Assembly (NCBI GenBank): GCA_013180585.1
Contig: QBUM01000251.1
Coordinates: 1-54,525 of the forward strand
Direction of reading: 5' to 3'
DNA length: 54,525 bases
DNA from: Candidatus Methanophagaceae archaeon GoMg2
Lineage (GTDB): Archaea; Halobacteriota; Syntropharchaeia; Alkanophagales; Methanospirareceae
Shown here: one piece after another, positions 1 through 49,157 of the stretch
Position numbering within the stretch: the stretch's first letter is position 1
How the letters are laid out: every line of letters begins with the position of its first letter
Position numbers and translations under genes: made by a program
Notes under the pieces: generated by a model
What the model was told of the DNA's origin: nothing
Databases searched by the model: none
Seen by the model: only the letters and a program-made list of their open reading frames with translations

Positions 1-178
1 AAAAAAGACATCTAAAACCATCACACAAAAACATATTCCTAAAAATGGTCGAAGTTACGGATTAACACAAGAAGATGGTACGTGACGCAGGATATCGGTT
101 AGTTTTGCATTTTATACCTTACAGCGTCATATTTTATCGTGAAAATCTGCGAAATCTTGTGGTTAGCTAAACAATTAC
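1..178 (+). mobile_element. MITE-like repeat family 1, divergent and possibly window-truncated copy (R1)
   Basis: The right terminus cgtgaaaatctgcgaaatcttgtggttagctaaacaattac (138-178) matches the right end of the copies at 14655, 18716 and 35134. The left part is only loosely similar (attaacacaagaa at 61-73). It is followed by ctttttg. Confidence 0.55.
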
Positions 179-3474: not shown

Positions 3475-3623
3475 ATATCAGCAGGGGAGACAAAAGAGGA
3501 AGCTTTTTTCCTTAGTACAGCTCTTATTGTAGCTTGGTTCATGTATGTAGCAAAAACCGAAATCGCTGTTGCGTTTTGTGTTGGCAATGATAGGATAAAT
3601 ATAACTATTTAGAGAACGGAGAC

Positions 3624-4340
3624 CTACTTGTAGCGAAGAGATCGAATGGACTGATATGCTTCTACTATCTCTTTCCCTTCAATGAAAACGGTGTCTCGCT
3701 CTGATGCAAAGGTTATTGCATCTGCCTTTGAGAGTGCAGCTCCAGATTCGGTGTCCAGCATTTCACAGATTACCATTGCAGGAGATATGCCCGCAAGCAA
3801 CGCCAGAACTACGGAAAGCTCTGTCTGACCTCTTCTTTCATCAAGCAGACCATCTGCAGCTTTCAATATTGAGACATGCCCCGGTGTTCGGAATTCCGTG
3901 TGAAAATCGCAGAATTTACCGTTCAGTACATTCTCCACCGCTTCTCCAGTCTTCTTTATCGTTAAAGCTCTGTCCATATCTGTTATCCCCGTGAAGGTGT
4001 CTCGATGATTCACCCAGAGGGAAAAGGAAGAGCGTTTATCATATGAAAGGTCGCCCTTTTCTTCCACCATTCTTCTTAGAGGAAAGAACTCTCCAGTCGC
4101 ATTTCTCAAAATATCACTTATCAGTGGTAGCCCAAGCTTATCAGCCGCAAGGGGATGAATAGCAACGCATATAAGCCCTCCTCCTTCATTTCTATAATAA
4201 GCAATGTCTTTGGGCGTCACTGCAGAAGCGTGCATTACAAAGTCAGTCTCGCCTTCTCTATCCGCTGCATCGTATATTAATACGATTTTACCCCTTTTTA
4301 CGTATTCTATACCCTGTTCTACCGACTCTGGAATCTTCAT
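3624..4340 (-). CDS. ribB: 3,4-dihydroxy-2-butanone 4-phosphate synthase
   Basis: 238 aa. DREGETDFV, GGLICVA and TPGHV motifs are typical of DHBP synthase. Its start overlaps the ribK stop by 4 nt. Confidence 0.88.
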   Translation of the reverse strand: MKIPESVEQGIEYVKRGKIVLIYDAADREGETDFVMHASAVTPKDIAYYRNEGGGLICVAIHPLAADKLGLPLISDILRNATGEFFPLRRMVEEKGDLSYDKRSSFSLWVNHRDTFTGITDMDRALTIKKTGEAVENVLNGKFCDFHTEFRTPGHVSILKAADGLLDERRGQTELSVVLALLAGISPAMVICEMLDTESGAALSKADAITFASERDTVFIEGKEIVEAYQSIRSLRYK

Positions 4341-5017
4341 ATCGCCACCTTCGTCTTTATCTCATCCCCGTCAATTAATTTGAGTTCACATCTCAGGAAA
4401 ATAGGTGATATTATCTCCAAGACATCTTCTGGATAATGCGTGCGGTCGGGAATGATAACCGCGCTTTTGATCCCTTCCGCTTGGCCACTCAATATCTTAC
4501 ACGGGAAGCACTTGCCACCGCCAAATGTTCTATCTGCGGCTTCAAAACTTTCTATTTTCACGCCTCTTTGCCCATCCAGCTTCTTCCTCGTTTCTATACT
4601 CTGTGAGTCCAGCCGTAGATTTAAGGTACCAGGAAAAGGATTAAAGCCCAACTTAGACGCGAATTGTTTCTTATAGCCCATAAGAGTCGTATAATATTGC
4701 CCTTCTCCAAGACCTGTAATCAAGCGACCCGTGATTTCCACCTCGGCGATAGGCGAGGAAAAAAATATCTCCTGATATTCATAGCATTCACTCCTCAGTC
4801 GTTCTATTCCGTTGTTCGTCAGTATTATCCACTGACCATCCGCGATTATTCTTCTATGCACAAGTCCCGCTCTATCAAGCTCTTGGAGTCGCCTCGCAGC
4901 GGTCTGTACACTCGATTTAATCGCCCCTGCGAACTGCCCGGAAGATAACTTAATTGGTTGTGCAATCGCACCTAACAAAGCGAGCTTTTTTAACGAAACT
5001 ATTATGTCCCCAGTCAT
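4337..5017 (-). CDS. ribK: CTP-dependent riboflavin kinase fused to an N-terminal winged-HTH domain (RbkR-like)
   Basis: 226 aa. The C-terminal half carries GFNPFPGTLNLRLD and PDRTHYPEDVLEII, typical of archaeal riboflavin kinase. The N-terminal ~90 aa look like a wHTH (TAARRLQELDRAGLV). Confidence 0.8.
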   Translation of the reverse strand: MTGDIIVSLKKLALLGAIAQPIKLSSGQFAGAIKSSVQTAARRLQELDRAGLVHRRIIADGQWIILTNNGIERLRSECYEYQEIFFSSPIAEVEITGRLITGLGEGQYYTTLMGYKKQFASKLGFNPFPGTLNLRLDSQSIETRKKLDGQRGVKIESFEAADRTFGGGKCFPCKILSGQAEGIKSAVIIPDRTHYPEDVLEIISPIFLRCELKLIDGDEIKTKVAI

Positions 5018-12008: not shown

Positions 12009-12166
12009 GTATTTGTTTAGCTAACCACAGATTACAAAAATTTTCACGAGAAATATTAATAGGGATCAGGCTTAAGCACTTTATTGGTTTTTTATCCCCT
12101 GCTAACCCCTAATTCTTGTGCTAATCTCGTGGAATCTCGTGGTTTTTTAGAGTAGCGAACAACTAC
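12009..12166 (-). mobile_element. MITE-like repeat family 1 (R2)
   Basis: Sequence runs gtatttgtttagctaaccacagattacaaaaattttcacgagaa ... attcttgtgctaatctcgtggaatctcgtggttttttagagtagcgaacaactac. It is full length, in reverse orientation relative to 35134..35285. No clear target duplication. Confidence 0.85.
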
Positions 12167-12444
12167 GTTTTTTGGTGTGAAATGTCTCTTTTCAAAATTG
12201 AGTTTTATTTGTGCTCGGTTTTTGTTTTATCTTTTAATGCTATCCCTCTCTTCACTCTGCTCACGATCTTCCATACCCGCTCCTTGATTAGAACATAGCG
12301 CTCGAACTCTGTTACGTTTTTCCCCTCGGTTCTCGGCACCCCCCAAAAAATCTATGCAGCAGAAAAGATATATCGCTGCCTGAAGTCCTGATATAGCGGA
12401 AGAAGCTTCAAGTTCACTGTTGAAAAAAGAAGGTCTTTTTACCC

Positions 12445-13710
12445 TTACCTCTTGATTCTACTCAACGCGACAAGAACTAACAAACCCACAAGTGCTATTA
12501 TTCCAACCGGCATTAGCGTTGGTATTTGTGCGTGTGGCGCCGCAGCCACATTCCATATCCATATCCGCATATCCATGCCGTTTGGATTCGCAGCGATTGC
12601 CGAAACATTGTGTTCGCCAGCTACTTTGGCATGTAGCGTGCATTTAGCATCCGTTACGCTTCTATTCGTAAACAACAGCGAATCATTCAGATACCAGCTT
12701 ACGTTTACCGTTTGATTTACGGTTACGGTGAACGTTGCCCAATTACCGGTGGTATCGCTAACAGGTGAAGCAGGTACAAAGAAAGTGATGTTTGGTGGTG
12801 TCGTTAGCGAGATAAGCCGTATAGTCGTAGTGTTATAAATTTCCATTCTGTATGCTTTAACCGTCACCGTACCGGATGTTAGACCGGATGTTAAAGTGCT
12901 ATACGCATATCCATTCACGTCCGTCTTGTCCCACACTGCTATATCCGCGACTCTCCCCCCGTCCAAGTCTGGATTCAGCCCCACATCATCAGGACCTTCT
13001 TCTATCATAAATACAAGTATGTAGCCACTACCGGCTTCACCATCACTCATTGCGCGAGCCGTTATGTTGGATATTGAAGACCCATCTGCAGGTATGCTTG
13101 TTGGATCAGAGGTCACGATAATCTCGGTTGGTCCCGGCGGTGGTGGTGGTTGCTGTTGTTGCTGTTGCGCACTTACCGATGCTGCAAAAGATGCACCCTG
13201 TGGCCACTCTATCCAGTATCCGTTGCCTCGTTGCAGTGTGTCACCTTTGCCAAGTGTAATCCATTTATCCGCTACTACATCCCAGCCCACAACTTCTACA
13301 TCGTCCTCAATCGTAACATCGGTGTCGCCTATACCAACCAGGTTCCATCCTGATTGTAGATTTGCCATGATTGTTGCCCATGTGAGACCATCCACAGTTG
13401 TTCCATACACATCCACTGTTTTTGGCTCAAGACATCTGATGAGGTATCCTTTTCCTCCTTCTAATACCGTTGGCGTAAAGTATCCAGTTGCCGGTTCATA
13501 GCTGAATATCTCTACATCAATACCAAATACAGCATCAGGATTCGCATCATCTGGAATTACTGGCATTGAGAAGTAGTCCACTCCTTCCTCCATATGGATC
13601 CTCCATCCGTATTCCATGGGTTTAACGACAGATGCCTCCGCTATAAACGGTAGCATAGCCACCAAAATTGCAATCGCAACCAAACAACTCAACACTTTTC
13701 TCGTTACCAT
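12445..13710 (-). CDS. Secreted/cell-surface glycoprotein with Ig-like domains and a C-terminal membrane anchor
   Basis: 421 aa. It has an N-terminal signal/TM segment, a QQQQQQPPPPPGP linker and a Big_1-like segment (IIVTSDPTSIPADGSS). A sequon-rich domain (NITFF..NVSWYLNDS..NVSAIAANPNG) resembles the pre-PGF domains of methanogen surface proteins. The tail is hydrophobic plus basic (GIIALVGLLVLVALSRIKR). Confidence 0.7.
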   Translation of the reverse strand: MVTRKVLSCLVAIAILVAMLPFIAEASVVKPMEYGWRIHMEEGVDYFSMPVIPDDANPDAVFGIDVEIFSYEPATGYFTPTVLEGGKGYLIRCLEPKTVDVYGTTVDGLTWATIMANLQSGWNLVGIGDTDVTIEDDVEVVGWDVVADKWITLGKGDTLQRGNGYWIEWPQGASFAASVSAQQQQQQPPPPPGPTEIIVTSDPTSIPADGSSISNITARAMSDGEAGSGYILVFMIEEGPDDVGLNPDLDGGRVADIAVWDKTDVNGYAYSTLTSGLTSGTVTVKAYRMEIYNTTTIRLISLTTPPNITFFVPASPVSDTTGNWATFTVTVNQTVNVSWYLNDSLLFTNRSVTDAKCTLHAKVAGEHNVSAIAANPNGMDMRIWIWNVAAAPHAQIPTLMPVGIIALVGLLVLVALSRIKR

Positions 13711-13952
13711 CTTCTTCCTCTTTTTATCTCCTTGGCTGATGTTTTATCTGACTTTTAACGTATTAAAACTTATTTACGCATTACCTCTCTCTGCCTTATT
13801 ACGTTTTACTCTTTCTGATACGCTCATAAAAATGATTTCCCCCTACGTTACAAATCTTCTCTTCTTTCTCCTTCGAGAGCCTTGATAGTGAATAAACGTT
13901 TAAAGCCTAACACATCTAATTTTAAAGACCAATGTAATAAGGAGTATTAAAG

Positions 13953-14192
13953 ATGTCAAAAGTAAAAGCGGCGAAGAAGGCGCAGAAAGCAGGGAAGAAA
14001 GAAGGTGGGGGTGGCAGCGGCGGAAGAGGCGAAGAGCGAGGGCTTATGTCCTCCGCGGGCTTGATGCGATATTACGATGTGGAGGAATCAGCGGTTAAGT
14101 TCTCACCGAAGACGATAGTGATCATAGGCGTGTCTTTGGCTGTCGTTGTATTAGGATTAGAGATATATTTCGGTGTATGGCCACTATCTTGA
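13953..14192 (+). CDS. Preprotein translocase subunit Sec61-beta
   Basis: 79 aa. SAGLMRYYDVEES..KFSPKTIVIIGVSLAVVVL is the Sec61-beta signature plus its TM helix. The N-terminus is Lys/Gly-rich. An aaggag RBS lies upstream. Confidence 0.8.
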   Translation: MSKVKAAKKAQKAGKKEGGGGSGGRGEERGLMSSAGLMRYYDVEESAVKFSPKTIVIIGVSLAVVVLGLEIYFGVWPLS

Positions 14193-14201
14193 GAAAGAAT
14201 A

Positions 14202-14651
14202 ATGCAGCGGTATGACATGCACATGGTGGACATAAGCGAGAAAAAAGACGTAGTGCGGATAGCAGTAGCTTCGGGCAGGGTAAAATTGAAAAGCAGCACG
14301 ATTGAGCGAATAAAAGCAGGAACTATAAAGAAAGGAGATGTGCTTGCGTGCGCCGAGACCGCAGCGATATTAGCAGTGAAAAAAACGCCTGAAATGATTC
14401 CGTTATGCCATTATATCAGTATTGACGCGGTAAACGTTGAGTTCTCAATAGGAGAAGAGGAGATAAAAGCGGCGGTATCTGTGAAGTCGGTTGGTAAGAC
14501 GGGTGTAGAGATGGATGCACTGTGTGGTGTGAGCGTGGCACTGCTGACGATATGGGATATGGTGAAATCGGTAGAGAAGGACGAAACGGGGAATTATCCG
14601 CATACGGGGATAGTAGAGATACGAGTAGATAAGAAAGAGAAGCGAGCTTAG
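14202..14651 (+). CDS. moaC: Cyclic pyranopterin monophosphate synthase accessory protein MoaC
   Basis: 149 aa. [32 protein letters not shown] and GVEMDAL motifs are typical of MoaC. Confidence 0.88.
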
Positions 14652-14654
14652 GTT

Positions 14655-14806
14655 GTATCTGTATAGCTAATATGAAAAACCACGAGATTCCACAAGATTA
14701 ACACAAGAAATAGGGATTAATGTGGACTATGGTATACTAAAATCAAGTTACTATCCTTCTATTCTTGTGGAAATCTGTAAAATCTTGTGGTTAGCTAAAC
14801 AATTAC
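14655..14806 (+). mobile_element. MITE-like repeat family 1 (R3)
   Basis: Sequence runs gtatctgtatagctaa..aaaaaccacgagattccacaagattaacacaagaa ... ttcttgtggaaatctgtaaaatcttgtggttagctaaacaattac. It starts 4 nt after the moaC stop. No clear target duplication. Confidence 0.85.
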
Positions 14807-14842
14807 GTTAAATTTATACCGATTGCGTATTTCTAAATTTTA

Positions 14843-15595
14843 ATGACAATAATTCCAGACTTGCACCCAAGATATAAATCGTTAATGACACGAGATAAGC
14901 TCGTAGCAGGTGTAGAAGCGGGGATAACTTCCCAGCAGGGTTTGATAGCTCATGGTCGAGGCGAAGCTTTTGATTATTTGATTGGAGAGCAGACTTTAAA
15001 GTCGGCGAGAAGGGCGACGGAAGTTGCCGCTGCTATGCTATTGGCTGCGAAGAAGCCGGTGCTTTCCGTGAATGGTAATGTCGCTGCGCTGGTAGCGAAA
15101 GAGATGGTAGAGCTGAGTGAATTGCTAAACGCACCTTTAGAAGTGAATATCTTTTACCGAACCGAGAAGCGAGCTAAACGGATAAAAGCGCTGTTAGAGA
15201 AACAGGGTGCTAATAAAGTACTTGGTGACCTGCGAAATGCGGTAATCCCTGGTATAGAGCATTCACGTGCAAAGGTTGACCGCGACGGTTTATACAGCGC
15301 GGACGTTGTTCTTGCACCTCTGGAAGACGGTGATAGATGCGAAGCACTTGTTAATATGGGCAAGAAGGTGATAACAATTGATTTGAACCCGTTATCGCGA
15401 ACTTCTAAACAAGCATCCGTGAGCATTGTGGATGATATAGAGCGGGCACTGCAGAATCTTATTTTGGCGGTTAAAGAAGATAAGAAGGCAAAAAATGATT
15501 TAGCTGCTTTGTCAGAGAGTTACGATAACAATGAGAATTTGAAGGCGGTTATTAAAGAGATAGTGAGTCGGTTAAAGAAGGAGGATTTAAGATAA
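14843..15595 (+). CDS. 4-phosphopantoate--beta-alanine ligase (archaeal phosphopantothenate synthetase)
   Basis: 250 aa. HPRYKSL..R..L..G...GI.SQQGLIAHGRGEAFDYLIGE and SVNGN motifs are typical of the archaeal COG1701 family. Confidence 0.8.
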   Translation: MTIIPDLHPRYKSLMTRDKLVAGVEAGITSQQGLIAHGRGEAFDYLIGEQTLKSARRATEVAAAMLLAAKKPVLSVNGNVAALVAKEMVELSELLNAPLEVNIFYRTEKRAKRIKALLEKQGANKVLGDLRNAVIPGIEHSRAKVDRDGLYSADVVLAPLEDGDRCEALVNMGKKVITIDLNPLSRTSKQASVSIVDDIERALQNLILAVKEDKKAKNDLAALSESYDNNENLKAVIKEIVSRLKKEDLR

Positions 15596-15659
15596 GAGAG
15601 TGATTTTTTAGTACGCAAAACATTTACTAAAAATATAAAATTCTTAAACGAGCGGAAAA

Positions 15660-17207
15660 ATGGTGATTACCGAAGTAGCGGAACTGACAACATCCGAAAA
15701 GCGAGTCCTGCTTGCTCTCAACGAAGAAGCGAAAGCGTGTGACCCGAGCACCTTATCCGAGAAGACAGACATAAACGAAGATGCAGTGATGCAAACTGCT
15801 TTTATGCTTGCCCAGCAGGAACTTTGTGAAGTAAAAGAGACGGAAAGAACTTATTATCATCTAACCGTGGAAGGAAAGGCTTATGCCGCGGAAGGGTTGC
15901 CCGAACGAAGAGCACTGGAGTTTTTGATAGCCCGGAAAGAAGCAACCATTGATGATTTGAAAACCGCGTTTGGCAAAACTGCTAATATAGCAATAAATTG
16001 GCTATTAAAGAAGAACTGGGCGAGAATTAAACGAAAAGAAGGTGAGAATCTTTTGATCCCTGTGGCTCAAGCCGGAACTGATCCGGATATTGACGAGCTA
16101 ATACTGAAAAAGCTGGCTGAAGGGAAATCCGAGTTGACTTTTCTGCTGGAACAAGTGGCAAACGCATTACCTGTGGACGAAGCAGAACTAAACGACTTTT
16201 TGAGCCGATTGATGTCGAGGAAATTAGTAGAGCAATACACACGTGTAGAGCGCAAAATAGCGATTACCGAATCGGGCAAAGAGCTTTTATCGCGTGGTGT
16301 CTCGGTTGAGGAAGAGATAGCACAGCTCACACCCGAACTCATAAGAACAGGGTCCTGGAAAGAGCATAAATTCAAGCGGTATGATGTGAATATATCATCA
16401 AAAGAAGTATTCGCTGCGAAGATACATCCGTATCAGCGTATTTTAGACCGTATGCGGCGAATATTCACGGATATGGGCTTCACGGAGATAAAAGGAGCGC
16501 TTGTTCAGAGTGCGTTCTGGAATTTCGATGCGTTATTCGTGCCACAGGATCATCCAGCACGTGAGATGCAGGATACGTTCTATCTGACAACGCGAAAGCC
16601 GATAGACGCGCCCGATGAATTGATAAAGAACGTAAAAGAGATGCAGGAGCATGGCGGCTCGTTGAATTCTTCGGGTTGGGGCGGAGAATGGCGAAAAGAG
16701 TTAGGCGAAAGGCTGCTTCTGAGGACACATACCACTGCGGTTACGTTAAAATACTTGGCTTCGCATCCCGAGCCACCGGTGAAAGTCTTCAGCATTGACC
16801 GCGTTTACCGGCGTGAGACGATTGACCCGACACACCTCCCGGAGTTCGACCAGTTAGAGGGAATCGTTATGGATAAAGGCGTGACATTCAGTAATTTGCT
16901 GGGCTGTCTTGCAACATTCTACCGTAAGATGGGTTTCCCTTCTATACGATTTCGACCCGGGTATTTCCCTTATACCGAGCCGTCCGTGGAGGTAGAAGTG
17001 TACCTGCAAGAGCGAGGGTGGATGGAATTAGGCGGTGCGGGCGTGTTCCGAGAAGAGGTGACGACTCCGGTGGGTCTGAAATACCCGGTTTTAGCCTGGG
17101 GACTCGGTATTGGACGATTGGCTATGCTTAGCCTGGGACTGACGGATATACGGGATTTGTATCACTCGGATATAGACTGGTTACGGAAAGAACGAGTATT
17201 TCGGTAA
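15660..17207 (+). CDS. pheS: Phenylalanine--tRNA ligase alpha subunit
   Basis: 515 aa. It has a long archaeal N-terminal wHTH region and a class II core (HPAREMQDTFY, LRTHTT, FRPGYFPYTEPS, GAGVFR). Confidence 0.92.
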   Translation: MVITEVAELTTSEKRVLLALNEEAKACDPSTLSEKTDINEDAVMQTAFMLAQQELCEVKETERTYYHLTVEGKAYAAEGLPERRALEFLIARKEATIDDLKTAFGKTANIAINWLLKKNWARIKRKEGENLLIPVAQAGTDPDIDELILKKLAEGKSELTFLLEQVANALPVDEAELNDFLSRLMSRKLVEQYTRVERKIAITESGKELLSRGVSVEEEIAQLTPELIRTGSWKEHKFKRYDVNISSKEVFAAKIHPYQRILDRMRRIFTDMGFTEIKGALVQSAFWNFDALFVPQDHPAREMQDTFYLTTRKPIDAPDELIKNVKEMQEHGGSLNSSGWGGEWRKELGERLLLRTHTTAVTLKYLASHPEPPVKVFSIDRVYRRETIDPTHLPEFDQLEGIVMDKGVTFSNLLGCLATFYRKMGFPSIRFRPGYFPYTEPSVEVEVYLQERGWMELGGAGVFREEVTTPVGLKYPVLAWGLGIGRLAMLSLGLTDIRDLYHSDIDWLRKERVFR

Positions 17208-17623
17208 TCCTCAAGCGCAGCTTTTAACGTATTTATAGCAAGTACAGGACAATGAAGATTATCCGCGGGTAAGTCGCCCAAAATAGCTAAGACATCATCC
17301 GCAGTGAGCTTTGACGCTTCTTCTATCGTCTTACCCTTCACGAGTTCTGTAACCACACTTCCAGATGCGATTGACGGACCGCAACCATCGGTTATGAATT
17401 TGCAATCGCTAATTATATCGCCTTCGACTTTTAGATGTATCTGTATTGTATCGCCGCAGGGACCTGTTACCTTGCCGACAGCACTGGGCTCTTTCAACTC
17501 ACCAACGTTTTTGGGGTTGTACGCTTCCTCAAGTGTCTTCTCGGTATATATTTCCTTCTCGTCTTTCTGTATCGCGCCTTCTATCTCTCCGACCAGGGCA
17601 TCGAAATCATTATTCTCCGACAT
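17162..17623 (-). CDS. iscU: IscU/NifU-like Fe-S cluster scaffold protein
   Basis: The GPCGD..., ITDGCGPSIASGS and HCPVLAINTLKAA cysteine motifs are present. The start is placed at the ATG at 17623 (MSENND) because a ctttttatat TATA-like box lies about 25 nt upstream. The track ORF extends to 17698. Confidence 0.8.
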   Translation of the reverse strand: MSENNDFDALVGEIEGAIQKDEKEIYTEKTLEEAYNPKNVGELKEPSAVGKVTGPCGDTIQIHLKVEGDIISDCKFITDGCGPSIASGSVVTELVKGKTIEEASKLTADDVLAILGDLPADNLHCPVLAINTLKAALEDYRNTRSFRNQSISE

Positions 17624-18009
17624 TCCGTATCTAAATAATTTGCCTCGCATATAAAAAGTTGAGTGTTTGCATCGCGCGGAAAGGCACCGCCGCCGCAAGG
17701 AAACAAAAAGAAGGTTTTTTGTGGTTTTTTTCTTGTATGCTAAAAATTTGGTGATATGTTAAATATTTTTTACCGCATTTGCAAATAAATTTTAGGTGTG
17801 GTCGCTAAGGAACTGTTCTAATAGCTTAAAACACGAATAGAAGTTTAGTAAATCGGCTATTTGTTAAAACAACAGGTAAAAACCGAAAGTCAGTTATAGG
17901 GTTACCATATAATGTATCTTTCAATGATGCCACAAATAGAGCGATGCCGAAGAAAGCGGTGACTTCTGACTGGTGGTTACTAAAAATAGGAGGTGAAACG
18001 AAAAGAAAG

Positions 18010-18615
18010 ATGAAAACAAAAATGATAGGTACATTGGCGATAGCAGGTCTGATAGCAATGGCGGTATTCGTGGGCACCGCCGCGGCAGATGGGGGTGCTA
18101 ATATCTTCGCGAGCAATAGCGGCAGTTACAATCAATATACAACTAATTTTTTAACGACTGAAAATGTTTTTGCCTGGGGGTACCTCGGTCCTGAATCTGC
18201 TCCTAATACTACTTTATGTGGTTCAGCGGGTTGTGGTGGAAGGATCTATGTCGTGAATCACAGCGACACATGGACTAACGGAACTCTCCTGGATGATAGA
18301 AGTGGTGGGTATGAGATTGTTACTTGGGGTGCTGCTGGGTACTTCAACGGCAAATTGGCATGGCCGAAAGACCTCACACCTGGCGAATACGACCTCATAC
18401 TCGACTTGAACTGTACCGGATACAACGGTGAGTGGACCAATATCTCGGATCCACGACCGGCAAAGACAGGTTATCTAACTGATCCTATATGGCCTTTTAC
18501 TGTAAAAGGCGATGAGCCGGAACCGATACCAGAATTCAGCACGATGGCCATACCGGTCGTTTCGATACTGGGACTGCTGTTCTTGTTCAACTATCGAAAA
18601 CATAGGAGACACTAA
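18010..18615 (+). CDS. PEF-CTERM-anchored secreted protein
   Basis: It has a ggaggtga RBS, then MKTKMIGTLAIAGLIAMAVFVGTAAA as signal peptide. The C-terminus PIPEFSTMAIPVVSILGLLFLFNYRKHRRH has PEF motif, TM helix and basic tail. The track ORF starts earlier, at 17944. Confidence 0.75.
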   Translation: MKTKMIGTLAIAGLIAMAVFVGTAAADGGANIFASNSGSYNQYTTNFLTTENVFAWGYLGPESAPNTTLCGSAGCGGRIYVVNHSDTWTNGTLLDDRSGGYEIVTWGAAGYFNGKLAWPKDLTPGEYDLILDLNCTGYNGEWTNISDPRPAKTGYLTDPIWPFTVKGDEPEPIPEFSTMAIPVVSILGLLFLFNYRKHRRH

Positions 18616-18715
18616 TATTTTTATTTGTTTACCGCCCAGATCACGGCGAGCGCAGAGATGAGATAATGAATTCTCTGTGCTCTTTGCATGCTCCGCGGTA
18701 AACAACTACTTTTTT

Positions 18716-18876
18716 GTATTTGTATAGCGATTTTTTAAAACCACGAGATTCCACAAGATTAACACAAGAAATGGGGATTAATGTGGGATAATGTGGTCTA
18801 TGTATACTAAAATCTGGTTACTATCCTTCTATTCTCGTGGAAATCTGTGAAATCTTGTGGTTAGCTAAACAATTAC
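18716..18876 (+). mobile_element. MITE-like repeat family 1 (R4), flanked by ctttttt direct repeats
   Basis: Full-length copy. ctttttt at 18709-18715 and at 18877-18883 directly abuts both termini. Confidence 0.9.
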
Positions 18877-18976
18877 CTTTTTTATCAATGTAATCTTACG
18901 TTCAGAAAGTAGCTGAACTAACTGAATCCATTTCGATCTGTGGTTAACATTTTTAGCGTTTGTAATTACAATCCTA

Positions 18977-19213
18977 CTATGGCAGCTCTTTCAACGCCTT
19001 GATGTATCTTTCCTTATCAAAAGGCTTTTTATTGCTTAAAACTTCGTATATATCTGTAGCAACCGCTCTTCCTATTAATTTCATTGCATCGTCCTCTGAA
19101 TAGCCCTCTCGCAATAGCCGGTCAAAGGTCTGCTTAGTCTCTGGTGGATCATCCGCTCTAAGTTGGTTCTCCACCGCTTCAAGAATTGCCTTTTGTAGCC
19201 GCAGGTTTGCCAT
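18977..19213 (-). CDS. Small hypothetical protein (DUF1841-like by pattern)
   Basis: 78 aa. ENQLRADDPPETKQTFDRLLREGYSEDDAMKLIG...PFDKERYIKALKELP resembles the DUF1841 pattern as I remember it. Not verified. Confidence 0.4.
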   Translation of the reverse strand: MANLRLQKAILEAVENQLRADDPPETKQTFDRLLREGYSEDDAMKLIGRAVATDIYEVLSNKKPFDKERYIKALKELP

Positions 19214-19237
19214 TTTTCCATTCCTATTTTTTGTGCG

Positions 19238-19579
19238 TTACGAAAACTTAGTAGCCACAAGGTCAGCGATGATTCCATACACAACACCAAATGCTATAAG
19301 TACCAAACCACCCGCAGTGTCGCCGTCAACGATCGTAAATATGCTCATCGCCATCGTTATCCCCGCTCCGATGAGCGCGCCCCTCAGGACAGGATGAAGT
19401 TTTATGTCTTCTCCTATTCCAACAACAAATCCGATTAACACGCGGTTATAAACAATGGCGGCCAGGAGTCCGGTTGTAACCACAAAATTCGGATCTTCTA
19501 ATGTTAACGTCCCGTGTGCGCAAAACAGCCCGCATAATAAACCTATCACGGTTGCGATTGCGACTCGTTTGCCGTTCAT
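19238..19579 (-). CDS. Small integral membrane protein (about 4 TM helices)
   Basis: 113 aa, hydrophobic throughout. It is tightly spaced with the flanking small genes on the same strand. Confidence 0.5.
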   Translation of the reverse strand: MNGKRVAIATVIGLLCGLFCAHGTLTLEDPNFVVTTGLLAAIVYNRVLIGFVVGIGEDIKLHPVLRGALIGAGITMAMSIFTIVDGDTAGGLVLIAFGVVYGIIADLVATKFS

Positions 19580-19590
19580 TTTTAACTACC

Positions 19591-20052
19591 CTATTTACTA
19601 ATGGTCATCTTGCAGCCTTTATCTCTGAACTCCACGTCCAGTGTAAAGCCTAAATTCTTTGCTACCCGTTTGAAATAGCCATCAATGCAGCCGGAACAGT
19701 GCTGCTCCTTTGTTATTGGCATACCCTTCTTCGCGAATTCCAATGCGGCTTCCAGGTTGCTGCACTTCTTCGTATCAAGTATCGCTCTTTCCGGGGTTCC
19801 TTCGACTTCCACGTCACTGCCAAATACGTTCTTGTTTATGACCCCATAACTCATTGCAAATTGCAATGGATCGTTAACGCCACGCCCTTTCATATCAGTG
19901 GCACAACCTTTCGCCGCTTCGTCATTCAACTCTTCCAACGCTTCCGGGCCCAATTTCCGCATGATGAACCCCAATGAGCCCATCATCGAGCCAAGCCACA
20001 TTTCTGTAAATATCTTCTGTTTCTCTTCTTCCGGTAAAGTTGGTATCTCCAT
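19591..20052 (-). CDS. Hypothetical cytoplasmic protein with conserved-looking cysteines
   Basis: 153 aa. The C-terminal half has C..(x)..CSGC..(x)..GC spacing. No confident family assignment. Confidence 0.4.
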   Translation of the reverse strand: MEIPTLPEEEKQKIFTEMWLGSMMGSLGFIMRKLGPEALEELNDEAAKGCATDMKGRGVNDPLQFAMSYGVINKNVFGSDVEVEGTPERAILDTKKCSNLEAALEFAKKGMPITKEQHCSGCIDGYFKRVAKNLGFTLDVEFRDKGCKMTISK

Positions 20053-20121
20053 TTTTAGTTCACCACAATTTATGTAATATGAGGGGGGTTTATAAAATTA
20101 TTGGACTAATTTTTATTATAG

Positions 20122-21117
20122 ATGAAAATAGAACAGCTCGGCGAGATAGGTTTAATAGAACGCATAACGAAAAAATACAAGGCGGACGCAGAGAGCATCG
20201 CAGTGGGTGTCGGCAAGGACGACTGCGCGGTCATAGACATAGACAAAGCACGATCAAGCTACAAATATCTCGTTGTCACTACGGACACGCTGCAAGAGTC
20301 AACGCACCTGCCCGAAGGCATCTCCCCTTCCCAGATAGGTTGGAGTGCCATTGCCGTTAATCTAAGCGATATTGCAGCGATGGGTGCTCGTCCCTATGCT
20401 TTCACAATCGCAATGGGCATTCCCGCACACACCGATACTGCGTTTGTAGATGCGATAGTAGAAGGGATAGAAGAATGTGCCTCGTCCTATAATACAGCGG
20501 TGGTTGGTGGCGATATAACGAGGAGTAAAGAGCTTATCTTAACCGGTACATGTTTCGGGTTTACAGATAAGCCGGTGATGCGAGCAGGAGCCAAAGTCGG
20601 TGATTTAGTATGCGTGACCGGCTCGGTTGGCAATGCCGCGCTTGGCTTAAAGATAATAAAAGAAGGGTTGACCGTGCCGAAAAAAGTAGATAAAACAGCG
20701 AAAAGAGCACTGTTCCAGCCTGTGCCAAGAATACAGGAAGGCATTAGTCTCGCTGACTCCGGATTAGTTACCTCAATGCTTGATATTAGTGATGGCCTAG
20801 CGCTTTCTCTTGCCGAACTCGCAAAAAGTAGTAAAGTTGGGTTTGAGATATACGAGGATAAAGTGCCGGTACTGAGCGATGAGATAAAGACTCCGTTGCG
20901 TGGCGTTAATCTTCGTAACCTCGCATTCTTTTACGGTGGTGACTATGAATTGCTGTTTACCGTTGATGCGAACGTATTAGAAAGTGAATTAGAAAGGTTG
21001 CGAAAAGAGGTTGGAATAAGTGTTATAGGTAAAGTAATGCCGTCGGAAGAAGGTATTTACTTTAAAAAAGGTGATAAGAAGGAAAGGATAAAGATAAAGG
21101 GGTATCAGCATTTTTAA
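20122..21117 (+). CDS. thiL: Thiamine-monophosphate kinase
   Basis: 331 aa. GEIGLIERI, GKDDCAVI, VVTTDTL.E.TH, NLSDIAAMGARP and VVGGDIT are the ThiL/PurM-fold signature. Confidence 0.82.
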   Translation: MKIEQLGEIGLIERITKKYKADAESIAVGVGKDDCAVIDIDKARSSYKYLVVTTDTLQESTHLPEGISPSQIGWSAIAVNLSDIAAMGARPYAFTIAMGIPAHTDTAFVDAIVEGIEECASSYNTAVVGGDITRSKELILTGTCFGFTDKPVMRAGAKVGDLVCVTGSVGNAALGLKIIKEGLTVPKKVDKTAKRALFQPVPRIQEGISLADSGLVTSMLDISDGLALSLAELAKSSKVGFEIYEDKVPVLSDEIKTPLRGVNLRNLAFFYGGDYELLFTVDANVLESELERLRKEVGISVIGKVMPSEEGIYFKKGDKKERIKIKGYQHF

Positions 21118-21130
21118 AATTTGACACATA

Positions 21131-21257
21131 GTGTTTCTATAGAGCAACCACGAGATTCCACAAGATTAGCACGAGAATAGGGGAAAAATAGCCAAAAATA
21201 CTGGAACCTGATTACTATAATAGTCCTCTTGTGAAAATCTGTGTAATCTTGTGGTTA
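21131..21257 (+). mobile_element. MITE-like repeat family 1, right-end-truncated copy (R5)
   Basis: Sequence runs gtgtttctatagagcaaccacgagattccacaagattagcacgagaa ... cttgtgaaaatctgtgtaatcttgtggtta. The terminal agctaaacaattac is missing. Confidence 0.75.
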
Positions 21258-27722: not shown

Positions 27723-27881
27723 GTATTTGTTTAGTTAACCACAGATTACACAGATTTACACGAGAAATATTAATATGGATCCGGTTTAAGCACTCTATTG
27801 ATTTTTTATCCCCCGCTAACCCAAAATTCTTGTGCTAATCTCGTGAAATCTCGTGGTTTTTTCGATTAGCTATACAAATAC
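27723..27881 (-). mobile_element. MITE-like repeat family 1 (R6), flanked by an 8 bp duplication acggttag
   Basis: Full-length copy. acggttag at 27715-27722 and at 27882-27889 abuts both termini exactly. Confidence 0.92.
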
Positions 27882-33027: not shown

Positions 33028-34257
33028 GTGACAGAGATGGATAACCTATTCGATGACCTGATATATGAGGGGCGGATATTTGCAAACAAAGAGGTACTTC
33101 GCCACGCATATATTCCCGAAAAACTGCCGCATCGGGAGAGGCAGATAAAGAGTTTAGCCGACATTTTGTCTGCGGCGCTAAAGGGAGAGACCCCGTCCAA
33201 TGTAGTAATCTATGGTAAGACAGGGACGGGAAAGACAGCTACGGTGAAATATGTAAGTAAAGAATTAGAAAGGATGGGGCGGAAGATGGGCAGTAAATGC
33301 TTCATGATATATATCAACAACGAGGTGTTTGATACGCAATATCGTGTTTTCGCCTATCTCGCACGGATATTCAATAAGAAGGTCCCGTTAATAGGTTGGC
33401 CAACAGATATGGTATATTCAGAGTTTAAGGCGGGGATAGATACGGATGATAGATGCGTAATCGTGATATTAGATGAGGTGGACAGGTTAGCAACCAGAGG
33501 TGACGGTGCGTTGTATAACCTCTCAAGGATAAACAGCGAGCTAAATAATGCACGGGTAAGCATGATAGGCATTTCAAATGACCTGACATTCACGGAGCTA
33601 TTGGACCCGAGGGTGAGGTCATCCTTGAGCGAGGAGGAGATAATATTTCCGCCTTACGATGCCGCTCAGTTGCAGGATATTTTGGGTGAGAGAGCGCGGA
33701 TGGCTTTCAATTATTCTGCGCTTAATGATGCGGTAATACCACTATGCGCCGCTTTCGCCGCTCAGGAGCATGGCGATGCGCGGCGTGCTCTTGACCTGCT
33801 GAGAGTATCAGGTGAAATTGCCGAGCGCTCGGAGTCCAAAACGGTAACAGAGGAGCACGTGAGGCAAGCAAGTGAAAGGATAGAAGCAAACAGCATTGTG
33901 GAAGTGATAAAGACGCTACCGCCACAATCAAAAATAGTGCTAAGCAGTGTGCTTTTATTACGCAGGGAAAGGAACAAGAGACGATTCTCCAGCGGTGAAG
34001 TCTATAACATGTATCGAAGGTCATGTAACCATTTGGACATGGAACCGTTAACACAACGCCGCGTTAGTGATTTAGTTGCAGAATTGGACATCTTAGGGCT
34101 GGTAAGCGCCGTGATAGTGAGTAAGGGTAGATACGGGCGTACAAAAGAGATATCGCTAAGTGTACCGGAAGGTTATGTGCAACCAGTCTTGTTTGAAGAT
34201 TATAAGCTTAAAGCATTAGTGAGTAATATAAAAGTAAAAGCGCAGATGACGCTGTAA
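33028..34257 (+). CDS. cdc6: Orc1/Cdc6 replication initiator
   Basis: 409 aa. It has Walker A IYGKTGTGKT, Walker B VILDEVD, sensor GISND and a C-terminal winged helix. An alternative ATG lies at 33037. Confidence 0.9.
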   Translation: MTEMDNLFDDLIYEGRIFANKEVLRHAYIPEKLPHRERQIKSLADILSAALKGETPSNVVIYGKTGTGKTATVKYVSKELERMGRKMGSKCFMIYINNEVFDTQYRVFAYLARIFNKKVPLIGWPTDMVYSEFKAGIDTDDRCVIVILDEVDRLATRGDGALYNLSRINSELNNARVSMIGISNDLTFTELLDPRVRSSLSEEEIIFPPYDAAQLQDILGERARMAFNYSALNDAVIPLCAAFAAQEHGDARRALDLLRVSGEIAERSESKTVTEEHVRQASERIEANSIVEVIKTLPPQSKIVLSSVLLLRRERNKRRFSSGEVYNMYRRSCNHLDMEPLTQRRVSDLVAELDILGLVSAVIVSKGRYGRTKEISLSVPEGYVQPVLFEDYKLKALVSNIKVKAQMTL

Positions 34258-35096: not shown

Positions 35097-35133
35097 CTTC
35101 CCCACTCAAATGTAGTTGTTTATTAAAAGGGAA

Positions 35134-35285
35134 GTATTTGTATAGCGAATTTTTAAAACCACGAGATTAACACAAGAAAATGGGATTAATGTGGGGTAAT
35201 GTGGCCTATGGTATACTAAAATCTGGTTACTGTCCTTCTATTCTCGTGAAAATCTGTGAAATCTTGTGGTTAGCTAAACAATTAC
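35134..35285 (+). mobile_element. MITE-like repeat family 1 (R7, reference copy), flanked by an 8 bp duplication aaagggaa
   Basis: aaagggaa at 35126-35133 and at 35286-35293 abuts both termini. The termini gtatttgtatagcgaatttttaaaaccacgagattaacacaagaa and ttctcgtgaaaatctgtgaaatcttgtggttagctaaacaattac are imperfect inverted repeats. Confidence 0.92.
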
Positions 35286-35345
35286 AAAGGGAAAGGTAAT
35301 AGACTGTTTCTATTTTGTATGCAACCAGATAGCTCAAATTGCGAT

Positions 35346-40111: not shown

Positions 40112-40226
40112 ATCTTTTTTCCCTCTCATCCTGAGATACCGCGCAAGCATCACCAATCCTACACACAACAGTAATACCGTTGGCAGTTCAGGAATCGGTG
40201 CGCACTGATCTGCTGGAATAGTATAT
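40112..40226 (-). pseudogene. Orphan PEF-CTERM tail remnant (no protein body, no start codon)
   Basis: The minus strand translates to ..IPADQCAPIPELPTVLLLCVGLVMLARYLRMRGKK.. The DNA is roughly 75% identical by eye to the 3' end of the 1252 aa gene (41071-41165). The upstream frame hits a stop inside the adjacent MITE. Confidence 0.65.
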
Positions 40227-40236
40227 AGTAAACATC

Positions 40237-40516
40237 CATAGGTGTTCGGTTAAGTACGACTCAACATAAATAATGACCCATAAAATAATATAACAACGCA
40301 TTTCCGACACAGATTTACACAGATTTACACGGATTCATCTTTTTTGTCTTTCATACGATTTTTTACCGTCACAGAACAGAGCAGAGCACCCAAAATTAAT
40401 TAGAAGTTTGTGATTTCCATCTGCGTTAATCTGCGTTAATCTGTGTTCATAAAATACTTTTTGTATGTCTTTTATTTTGGTTTTGTGGACCATAATTACT
40501 TAACCGAACACACATG
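40237..40516. mobile_element. 280 bp MITE (family 2, related to family 1) with about 20 bp TIRs and a perfect 10 bp target-site duplication
   Basis: The TIRs are cataggtgttcggttaagta (40237-40256) and tacttaaccgaacacacatg (40497-40516). agtaaacatc at 40227-40236 and at 40517-40526 abuts both ends. Subterminal 10 bp tandem repeats lie at 40308-40332 and 40421-40447. Confidence 0.88.
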
Positions 40517-41067: not shown

Positions 41068-44000
41068 TCACCCTTTCCTTCTTATCCGAAGATACCCCGC
41101 AAGCGTCAGCAACCCCACGCCCAACAGCATCACAGTCGAGAGTTCAGGAATCGGTGCACAAATATTCGGGTCTTTTTTGAATGGATAGTACGTCACGTTG
41201 CTGCAATTGACCGGATCGTCCTGCCAATCGTATATGCTTGCATTTATCGTAGCGTTATCCATTACCGCACCCCAGTAATTGTTCTTTGCTTCTACCGCTT
41301 CTTTCTGATCGTTGTAGAACTGCCATTCCCAAGCTGTACCGTTCGGCACACCATTCGCCACGATATTATTGCAACTGATATTGTTGCCGCTGCTGCCTCC
41401 CGTCAAGTTGAATCCCGCACGTGTGTTGTGGTGCACCCAGTTGCAAGTGATGTTGTTATCATCTGCGTTCCCGAGATAAATACCGTTGTAGTTCAATTTC
41501 ACCGTGTTATTCGTGATATTGCAGCTATTCACACCTACACCCAGGTATATACCCGCCTTTCCGTTTGCCGTGGCATTTTCCAGTGTGAATCCACTTATGT
41601 TCACGTAATTTGCAGTCACCTCGAAGACATGATCCGATGCCGAAGCAGCAGTTACATTTACAACATACGCGCCTTCGCCTTCCAGCGTGAGCCGCTTGTT
41701 CACGTTCACGTTCTCGGTGTAGCTGCCGTTCCACACATAGATCGTCTCGCTCGCAGTCGCGTTATCAACCGCCGCCTGTATCGGCGTGCCGTTGCCATTG
41801 ATCACGCCGCCGTCTCGCCACCAGCCGTTCTCGTTGACGCAGATGTCGCCGCAGGTGCAGGTTAGGCCCGCAGTAAAAATCGAATTTTCTGCTATTATCC
41901 GGGAGACGTTCCGAGAACCGGCTCTTGTAAAATGCACCTCGTCCGCGTCATACCATGATTTCCCACTAGCATAGTTGTCCTTCGTTTTATTGTAAAGCGC
42001 AGTAATCAATCGAGTGCCCAGGTTGCTTGCAACATTATCAATATTATCAAGATAACTTAATACATCACCATTAGGCGTGTAGGTAGGATAAAGCAGAGTT
42101 ATGTTTTCATAAGCTATGCTATGGTTATGAATATCTGTGACAACTAAAGTTAAATTCGCTTCATAATCTGCATCAATAAACCCACCGTTTTTGTCATTTA
42201 TACCAAGCATCACATATGCGTGAGTTGGTCCGAACAAATCAGAGTTGCTGATATTTCCATCTAATGAAGTGAATCTATCCGCATAGCCGTTAACGTTGGC
42301 TATGAACTTGTCATGTGTTCCCTTAGCAGTTATACCGCTCTTCGCCTCGTTATTGCTGTAAACCCAGGTACCATAAAAATCCTTGATATAATCAGAATAA
42401 AAGATATGGATGCCGTTGCAATAACATCTATGGGGGGTGAGGTTATCCCAACAGGGAAGTTCCAGTAAATTCTCACTGGTAACTGCATTGCCGTCACTTA
42501 GAGCATCTGTGAGATTAAGAACGTCTCCATCAGTAACATCTACATAAGAGATGGTGATGCTGTCGCCCACAAACTGGATGAGGTAAGACTGTATCCAGAA
42601 AGGGTCAATGCTTACTGTCTGATTCTCTCCGGAAAGAGCGTCCAGAGTTTCATTCAGTATAATAATATCCAGAGTATGGTTGCCGTATGAAAGACTGGTA
42701 AATTGCGCGTTGAATAACGTATCAGCGATATTGAGGTCATTGACGATTGTCTCGTTTACCCGTCCTTGATCAACAATAAACCGAACTCCGCCAACTTTTT
42801 CGGGCGAAGACAAAGTAGCAGAAGCATTTAGAGTTCTGGATTTTTGTAGATAGGGATAACTCTGTTTGTAGCTTGTGCCTCGTTCATCTTCAATCTGCAG
42901 TTGTTGCGCGGGTGTATAATTGGAAATCACTGCTTGACAGGATTCGGTAGCTGCCATCGGTGCAAACACACTGAAACTCGTGATGTTTACGCCAACAACG
43001 TTGTTTGTCGTGTCCAGATACCGTGTTCCATTCCAGCCGTCCTCAACCCACGCAGTACCGTTGTGCTTCCAGACCTTCAAACTCGATTCGTCCAGACCAC
43101 TGAGATCCGAGTCCGAATAACTGAAGTTCATTAATATCCATGCACCAGCACTATGATTAGTGGCGTTTATGGACTTGCTGATGTTGTTTCTGCCGGGTGG
43201 ATCGCTTGGCTGTGAAGTCACACCTCTTAACGACACATCTCCGCTGTAAGTAAAATCAATCGTTGTGCCGTTGAGTGTGTTGTTTGTGAAGGCAGATGTC
43301 GAACTCGCAATACGGAGGTCCCATGTATTGTCCGATACTGTGTTATTCGTAAACATGTTGTTGCTCGAAGAATTCAGGTAAATGCCGATGGTGTTGTCCG
43401 AAACGTTGTTATCAGAAATGTTGCAGTGATTCACGCCGCTACCGATGTAAAACCCCGCATTCATAGTTCCTCTCGCCCCGGTCACATTGAACCCTGAGAT
43501 GTTCACGTAATCAGCGGTCACCTCAAAGACGTGATCTGATGCCGAAGCCGCGGTTACATTCACCACATCCATGCCCTCGCCCTGTAGAGTGAGCTGCTCG
43601 TCCACGTTCACGTTCTCGGTGTAGCTGCCGTTATACACGTAAATCGTATTACCTGCAGAAGCGTTATTAATCGCATCCTGTATCCGTGTACCGCTCGCAT
43701 TAAAAGTGCCGCCGTCACGCCACCAACCGCTTGCGTTTACGCAGAGGTCGCCAAAGGTGCAGTTAAGCCCGTTTGGGTCACCAAGCGGCTTGAGGCTGAG
43801 CCCGTTTGGGTCACCAAGCGGCGCGATTATATTAAAATCCGTAATATAAGCATACACATAGTTCTCAGCCGTATTAACTCCTGTTGTACCGGTAACTTCT
43901 ACCCAATCCGTGCCGGTATGCACCCACATTCTTAAACTATCTTCTGCCACGTTCCCTAAATCCGCTTCGTCATAACTAACGTTCAAGAACAGCCACGAAT

Positions 44001-46795: not shown

Positions 46796-46956
46796 GCTAT
46801 TTGTTGAGCTAACCACAGATTACACAGATTTTCACGAGAAGATAATACTTATAATCCGGCTTAAGTGCACTATTGGTTTTTTTTATCCCTTGTTAACCCC
46901 AAAATCTTGTGCTAATCTTGTGAAATCTCGTGGTTTTACCCCTGCTATACAAATAC
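46796..46956 (-). mobile_element. MITE-like repeat family 1 (R8), 10 nt downstream of tRNA-Glu
   Basis: Full-length copy. The flanks are ctttttt (46789-46795) and ctctttt (46957-46963), matching at 6 of 7 positions. Confidence 0.88.
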
Positions 46957-49022: not shown

Positions 49023-49157
49023 GTGTTTGTTTCGCTAACCACAGGTTTCCACGAGAAATATTAATATGGCTTAAGCACTCTATTGGCTTTTTTAGCCCCT
49101 GCTGACCAAAAATTCTTGTACTAACCTCGCGGTTTTTTCGATTCGCTATACAAATAG
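49023..49157 (-). mobile_element. MITE-like repeat family 1, shorter copy (R9), flanked by aatgaaa direct repeats
   Basis: aatgaaa at 49015-49021 and at 49158-49164. The left copy contains the bud32 TGA stop (49017-49019). Confidence 0.85.

Follow-up and report, generated by a model that had tools for sequence, protein, structure and literature searches.

A recently mobile, MITE-like repeat family in the core genome of an ANME-1 archaeon

Results

Genomic setting and copies of the repeat

The window, i.e. the whole stretch of 54,525 nt analysed here, belongs to the core genome of an archaeon and has genes for Orc1/Cdc6, L7Ae, S28e, L24e, an archaeal PheS and Bud32, together with RNA polymerase A'/A'', a PEF-CTERM protein, the thermosome, GAPDH, PGK, EPSP and chorismate synthases, ProRS and S7. 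Nine copies of one repeat family are found in this housekeeping genome, which corresponds to about one copy per 6 kb within the window. The flagged copy (c7, Table 1) is located in the spacer between the genes for L24e and CNNM. Two ORFs adjacent to copies have no Pfam match; on reading, one looks like a secreted surface protein and the other like a SIS-like enzyme. A cyanobacterial origin, first suggested by the GC content, and a Nezha-type MITE were rejected on account of the Orc1, L7Ae, archaeal PheS, Bud32 and RNA polymerase A'/A'' genes.

The family was recovered in the window, in both orientations, by repeat finding and by an alignment of the nine copies. An nhmmer profile was built from eight of the copies (E = 1.9e-44 to 6.2e-27), and the truncated ninth was then recovered with the same profile (2.9e-10). 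The nine copies listed in an earlier note on this DNA are therefore all matched, essentially at the coordinates given there. Its statements that copies occur in both orientations (five on the plus and four on the minus strand) and that all of them are intergenic are likewise borne out. For the first copy, which had been drawn at 1-178, the assignment holds for 60-178; bases 1-59 are unrelated sequence.

Table 1 Family copies in the window, parts of the flagged copy c7, and two further small elements
Feature	Position	Strand	Core	nhmmer E	Remarks
c1	60..178	+	third (C-type)	2.9e-10	5'-truncated, model positions 42-161; stop of gene 190-1320 (-) 11 nt away
c2	12009..12166	-	B-type	5.2e-42	between convergent genes; left terminus degenerate; TSD not visible
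c3	14655..14806	+	A-type	3.2e-38	MoaC stop 3 nt upstream; phosphopantothenate synthetase gene start 36 nt beyond
c4	18716..18876	+	A-type	1.9e-44	CTTTTTT on either flank
c5	21132..21257	+	divergent	6.2e-27	outer termini degenerate; occupies the whole thiL / PhoU-TrkA convergent spacer
c6	27723..27881	-	B-type	6.9e-44	perfect 8-bp TSD CTAACCGT; between the divergent genes for GAPDH (start 81 nt off) and a deaminase (start 69 nt off)
c7 (flagged)	35134..35285	+	A-type	2.9e-39	152 bp
c8	about 46797..46956	-	B-type	3.2e-42	TSD CAAAAGAG/CAAAAAAG (7/8); begins 11 nt past tRNA-Glu
c9	49023..49157	-	B-type	3e-29	TSD 7/8 (xTTTCATT); one sub-repeat missing from each arm
c7 left TSD AAAGGGAA	35126..35133	.			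from sequence; 8-mer single in 8 aligned relatives
c7 left 13-bp terminus	35134-35146
c7 spacer	35147-35156
c7 left arm	35157-35178				two sub-repeats, one lost
c7 core	35179-35240
c7 right arm	35241-35271				three sub-repeats
c7 right terminus	35273-35285
c7 right TSD AAAGGGAA	35286..35293	.			from sequence and alignment to relatives
Sibling palindromic element	18622..18708	.			87 nt; similar termini TTATTTGTTTACC...GGTAAACAACTAC, CGCAGAG-type arms
Different MITE	40238..40516	.			~280 bp; outer TIR CATAGGTGTTCGGTTAAGTA, flanking direct repeat AGTAAACATC

The earlier note had distinguished two core subtypes, which is too few: the window holds at least three core types, and the third core, that of c1, recurs in other loci (L004, L040 and L048; loci collected from public data carry L numbers throughout). 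In the window, all A-type copies are located on the plus strand and all B-type copies on the minus strand (4 vs 4, c5 grouped with A). Given the few copies, this split may be due to chance.

Several other features of the window were recorded. An 87-nt repeat is found at 40118-40204 and 41074-41160 (78% identical), the second copy being the 3' end of the gene for a 1252-aa beta-helix surface protein. Read on the reverse strand, 40118-40204 would give ...IPELPTVLLLCVGLVMLARYLRMRGK, which resembles a PEF-CTERM anchor and is not joined to a long ORF; this stretch, next to the MITE at 40238, may be what is left of a gene. The same 1252-aa NosD/beta-helix surface-protein gene contains a 283-nt internal repeat (41586-41868 and 43488-43770, 77% identical). 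ARAGORN calls a tRNA-Arg(tct) at 2161-2245, inside the well-supported ProRS ORF (1562-3040); the call is not reproduced with Rfam and is probably a false positive.

Anatomy of the element

The flagged interval, 35126-35293, consists exactly of c7 and both of its 8-bp target duplications (TSDs) and reads AAAGGGAA-GTATTTGTATAGC...GCTAAACAATTAC-AAAGGGAA. The termini of the family are GTATTTGTATAGC ... GCTAAACAAWTAC, and the end sequences that bound the element are GTAWTTGTWTAGC...GCTAWACAAWTAC. Each end is composed of a 13-bp terminal inverted repeat (TIR) with the consensus GTA(T/A)TTGT(A/T)TAGC, a spacer of 0-10 nt and three direct CACRAGATT sub-repeats, followed by the variable core. In the alignments, consecutive sub-repeats start at intervals of 10 and 11 bp in the left arm and of 10 bp twice in the right arm. 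The termini and the CAC sub-repeats phased at 10-11 bp in both arms are as the earlier note had described them, and with this spacing the sub-repeats would share one face of the DNA helix.

The terminal inverted repeats (GTATTTGTATAGC / GTAWTTGTTTAGC) and the ~30-nt arms are conserved over 46 diverse copies. In their alignment, the 13-mers and arms are nearly invariant and the cores fall into several unrelated types. A proper multiple alignment had been named beforehand as a test of the terminal similarity, which survives in this alignment of 46 sequences. Copies are 99-220 bp in size, with about 100-165 bp as the length of an element of this family and about 150-160 bp as that of the flagged repeat; the minimal copy of 99 nt (L134) consists of the ends only, without a core. 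The element has no coding capacity, and the ORFs of 45-74 codons within longer copies look spurious.

Sub-repeats can be lost. Both c7 (35134) and c9 (49023) are short of one or more 10-nt units, and the alignments show that such units disappear through deletions of 10 nt. A left arm with two sub-repeats is found at two loci with different TSDs, namely c7 and L042 (AAAGTTTG/AAACTTTG). Since this variant was inserted at two or more different sites, two sub-repeats in the left arm would suffice for movement.

Target duplications, empty and occupied sites

Target duplications were analysed in 52 full copies with both termini located, which were taken from the window and from public genomes. The 8 nt on each side were compared, and the chance level was obtained by random re-pairing. 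Identical flanking 8-mers are found in 16 of the 52 copies (chance 0.36), and a match at seven of eight positions in 9 (chance 0.26). A recognisable TSD is absent from about half of the full copies, which may reflect age or recombination.

For the flagged copy, contigs encoding an identical L24e protein were collected (n = 10, SB_Co_68 included). The L24e-CNNM spacer is ~90 nt long in all ten related contigs vs 249 nt in the window. In the eight relatives that were aligned, the target 8-mer is present as a single copy and the element is absent; the 8-mer is AAAGGGAA in three relatives and a one-base variant of it in five. The relatives read ...GTTTATTA AAAGGGAA GAGTAATAG..., and the window reads AAAGGGAA-(152-bp element)-AAAGGGAA.

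The c9 site, by comparison, is filled in L199-L202 with identical flanks. The orthologous copies in these loci retain three or two sub-repeats, the window copy being short of one per arm, and c9 is, judged by this alignment, an old insertion common to relatives. As young strain-specific copies and old shared copies are both present, the family has long been active. A mixture of shared and unshared sites is what would be expected of a transposon family, and such an age distribution is supported by the sites compared here.

The earlier note had proposed a non-autonomous, MITE-like mobile element and had opposed this to a conserved regulatory element. The 8-bp TSD far above chance, the empty site at c7 and the many contexts support the former, the term non-autonomous being based on the lack of an ORF within it. 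A site that is empty in relatives at c7 and occupied at c9 likewise supports mobility over conserved regulation. The family is non-coding and smaller than ~500 bp, has TIRs and a fixed TSD length of 8 bp, shows insertion polymorphism and occurs in dispersed copies, all of which are criteria for MITEs. The flagged repeat is thus confirmed as real, and its reading as a recently mobile miniature transposon is supported.

It is very unlikely that the element is instead selected by the host as a functional unit (3'-end hairpin, terminator, insulator or structured RNA), its mobility being incidental. Such a function could be suggested by the neighbouring genes in the window, where 3' ends account for 14 of the 17 gene ends that border a copy and many of the stop codons are 3-20 nt away, and by the long hairpin that is formed when c7 is folded as RNA (-40.1 kcal/mol, z -3.65). 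Over 56 full copies, however, the preference for 3' ends is not significant (52 3'-ends vs 38 5'-ends, p = 0.17), and no target preference is therefore claimed. The hairpin follows from the TIRs of the element, and RNAalifold shows no conserved structure with covariation. Rfam 15 gave no match at gathering thresholds in the whole window and none for 35100-35320 at E <= 1. The copy c7 is also dispensable, since its site is empty in the eight aligned relatives, which have identical neighbouring genes.

The location of c7, ~875 bp downstream of orc1/cdc6 (Orc1-type gene at 33028-34257), could point to ORB-like repeats of a replication origin, and the TTCCACAAGA motif of c7 loosely resembles an ORB core. 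This origin reading is effectively refuted by the empty site, as the eight aligned relatives have the orc1-L7Ae-S28e-L24e locus without c7. The other eight copies are scattered over 54 kb and behave as insertions, and the arm is also found in bacteria, which have no Orc1. Its probability is negligible. An integron attC site was rejected as well. The RYYYAAC...GTTRRRY core sites of attC close ORF cassettes in arrays, and insertion occurs without a TSD; the element described here is found singly between housekeeping genes and duplicates 8 bp on insertion.

Host range

One genome per species was scanned with the right-end pattern, which is present in at least 94 contigs. Among the matches listed, nearly all are ANME-1/Methanophagales MAGs, and ~30 contigs belong to the isolate SB_Co_68. 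The family occurs in at least 26 species-representative archaeal assemblies and in many different genomic contexts. Confinement of the copies to the window, which had been raised as an argument against a mobile element, is thereby contradicted.

Two apparent hosts from other phyla were rejected. The contig of a "Desulfuromonadales bacterium" (L016, MAXT01000262.1) encodes archaeal Cbf5 and RpoD and is mis-binned. The contig of a "Nitrosotalea sp." (L039, DYFG01000018.1) carries genes that look unlike this genus (MetF-like, Ta0216-family radical-SAM and NiFe-hydrogenase) and looks mis-assigned.

Rearrangements and assembly breaks at family copies

The contig L002 of SB_Co_68 is 94% identical to the window over 14762-21118, which places the window in ANME-1 (Methanophagales), and synteny between the two is broken exactly at c3, c4 and c5. 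The left half of c3 differs in L002. At c4, L002 contains half a B-type copy in reverse orientation with an identical right junction, and the PEF-CTERM gene (17944-18615) is absent (window 17731-18831 vs L002 3165-3183). The half copy at the c4 junction and the loss of this gene point to recombination between copies as a probable explanation for the change.

Assemblies are affected at the same positions. The locus L001, from a public short-read assembly, begins within c3 and terminates within c4, and several MAG contigs start or stop inside family copies.

A 446-bp segment of the window, 19608-20054, is precisely missing from the 94%-identical L002 and is unrelated to the MITE. It carries a 153-aa ORF of no assigned function (19591-20052), which adjoins an ORF at 19238-19579; there is no Pfam match for either of them.

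Search for a transposase and proposed mechanism

No transposase is encoded among the 40 ORFs of the window by Pfam or NCBIfam scan or by direct reading, in agreement with the earlier note. In ~1.2 Mb of loci, no transposase gene was found within a longer element bounded by these ends: searches for inverted 13-mers 300-5000 bp apart, arm pairs 0.3-5 kb apart, ORFs after solo ends and ORF clusters gave housekeeping genes only. Neither the plasmid collection nor the viral contigs contained a match to the family.

Several candidates for a partner were rejected. An apparent long element in L070 consists of two half copies around a gene that was read by eye as ribosomal protein S6e, and the candidate in L167 has bacterial genes inside. 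A composite transposon formed by c2 and c3 (12009-14806) lacks a flanking duplication, its cargo being a surface protein and MoaC. In L026, an unrelated IS with its own TIR lies beside a solo MITE end: it spans 3603-5005, encodes a 421-aa DDE-like ORF, has a ~40-bp TIR (TACAAACCTTAACTCCGCC...) and is 14 nt away from the solo end. In L145, an IscB-like ORF adjoins an arm; it is located at ~700-2100, about 650 nt downstream of the arm motif at the contig start, and PLMP, RuvC and HNH were recognised by eye. This could be an IS200/605-type element beside a MITE fragment.

The body of observations is very probably best explained by a family of non-coding MITEs that insert with an 8-bp stagger and would depend on a DDE-type transposase acting in trans. 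The transposase would be encoded elsewhere, attach to the phased sub-repeats and cut at the 13-mers, and insertion via an 8-bp staggered cut would generate the 8-bp target duplication. Copies would be tolerated only in short intergenic spacers. Once in place, they would give rise to rearrangements by recombination with each other and would break short-read assemblies.

IS families with 8-bp duplications include ISL3, IS6, IS66/ISBst12 (ends GTAA), IS1595, IS256/ISM1 and ISH6. All of these are compatible as the source of a partner by the 8-bp TSD only. The terminus GTA(A/T) of the family shows a possible likeness to IS66-type ends. Neither IS-family members bearing the family termini nor a linked transposase were found in the loci examined.

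Related palindromes and arm-only occurrences

Two further small elements of the window (Table 1) are missing from the list in the earlier note. The sibling element at 18622-18708 is directly abutted by c4. The inner palindrome of the MITE at 40238-40516 consists of three CACAGATTT units per arm, and its flanking repeat is 9-10 bp long. A copy with 88% identity is found in L029 (SB_Co_68), and the inner arms of three CACAGATTT units recur independently in many loci.

Palindromes of this kind are also nested within each other. Where family copies reach 200-350 bp, the extra length is due to other small palindromes nested in them. L183 has a perfect GGAAGAGG duplication, and L161 and L020 hold a ~112-nt "CACAGAG" element with an 8-bp duplication of its own, in which a terminal ...GTATAAC and a spacer accompany three CAC sub-repeats in each arm. 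GC-rich mini-palindromes (e.g. AAGCCCTTACAGGGCTT, GGGGCAGAGCCCCAC) are located within MITE arms in L047 (660-710), L013, L011 and L037 and form a further layer of nested small repeats.

Metagenomes were scanned with the 32-nt left arm AACCACRAGATTNCACRAGATTARCACAAGAW, with a filter against the common cores. The arm is found in 93 metagenome contigs with 84 distinct contexts, in 63 of which it lacks the adjoining 13-mer (loci among L106-L198, including L113, L149 and L164). The arm is often immediately next to a stop codon, and a long ORF ends no more than 6 nt upstream of it in 13 of these 63. Some of the arm-bearing contigs are clearly bacterial, as they encode Adk with a type I MetAP, FabZ or RuvX. 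On bacterial contigs, the arm occurs amid patchworks of palindromes from other units (CACAGAG, CACGAAAG and CACGGAT). The identical 32-nt arm on bacterial contigs hints at an exchange of a transposon lineage between domains that live together in methane-seep sediments.

A picture of one IS and one MITE leaves the arm without 13-mers on bacterial contigs unexplained. We consider it possible, at rather low probability, that the ANME-1 MITE is a branch of an undescribed cross-domain superfamily or that its arms are an independent mobile module. Such a superfamily may be defined by a short terminus and three helically phased sub-repeats of the CAC type, with units that vary across the related palindromes (CACRAGATT, CACAGATTT, CACAGAG, CGCAGAG, CACGAAAG and CACGGAT). 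Its members may nest in one another, may occur in ANME-1 and in co-occurring sediment bacteria, and may be mobilised by a transposase family so far unlinked to them.

The module could also account for the ANME-1 element itself, which would then be composite: an independent and far more widespread AACCAC...GTGGTT arm module of bacteria and archaea, nested in a tiny MITE with 13-bp TIRs. The arms would be a passenger, and the transposase that moves the ANME element would not have its binding sites in them. The exact 32-nt arm without the 13-mer in 63 distinct metagenome contexts, some of them bacterial, is consistent with this, as are the MITE at 40238-40516, in which a palindrome of three CACAGATTT units is enclosed by other outer TIRs and the flanking repeat is longer, the recurrence of that inner palindrome on its own at many loci, the sibling element at 18622-18708, which pairs similar termini with different arms, and the common nesting of palindromes inside copies. 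A composite origin nevertheless appears improbable. The "CACAGAG" element in L161 and L020 has the same plan and its own 8-bp TSD, and terminus and arms therefore travel together. The 99-nt copy in L134 is made up of termini and arms only, conservation across the core subtypes is highest in the arms, and the arm-only unit yielded neither a TSD nor a clean empty site. Since the sister "CACAGAG" family keeps terminus and arms together, a superfamily would be favoured over a separate mobile arm module.

Discussion

The uncultured ANME-1 archaea play a key role in marine methane oxidation. MITEs in archaea have long been known; to our knowledge, the mobile DNA of ANME-1 is almost unstudied. In the literature searched, no paper joins ANME with MITEs, and none contains the terminal or arm sequences. 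The family thus appears to be undescribed so far. The element itself is of an ordinary kind and a MITE by every testable criterion except for a partner IS. What gives the family weight is that it is dense, still active and coincident with synteny breakpoints between 94%-identical genomes. It ends short-read contigs and thereby directly limits MAG quality for ANME-1. For an organism without genetic tools, the ends of the family provide a defined, functional transposon end.

Among archaeal elements, the closest parallel considered is that of SM1-SM4 of Sulfolobus (Redder, She and Garrett 2001); for several of the Sulfolobus MITEs, a partner IS has reportedly been proposed from shared TIRs. Both groups are small, non-coding and present in multiple copies, have TIRs and TSDs, and are presumed to be mobilised by an IS in trans. 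In contrast to SM1-SM4, the ANME-1 family has an 8-bp TSD and three phased sub-repeats per arm, and a partner IS was not found.

The Correia elements (NEMIS) of Neisseria have a TA duplication, an IHF site and promoter elements. They resemble the ANME-1 family in their size of ~100-155 bp, long TIRs, intergenic density, core and length variants and hairpins, and in being without a known transposase. The ANME-1 family, in which 8 bp are duplicated, differs from them in this respect and is not similar to them in sequence. The eukaryotic hAT elements and their MITEs (e.g. Ac/Ds, Hermes) have an 8-bp TSD, short TIRs and subterminal repeats that are bound by the transposase. The 8-bp TSD, short TIRs and multiple subterminal repeats are alike in the family described here, a likeness that may be one of architecture only. 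We know of no hAT transposase in this setting, and none was found in the loci examined.

REP/BIME elements with RAYT transposases (PMC3733652), too, are abundant intergenic palindromes, and the family was considered as a member of this group. REPs are 20-40 bp long, tagged by GTAG or CGTC and without a TSD. The identification was rejected, as the elements of the ANME-1 family measure ~150 bp and are flanked by 8-bp TSDs.
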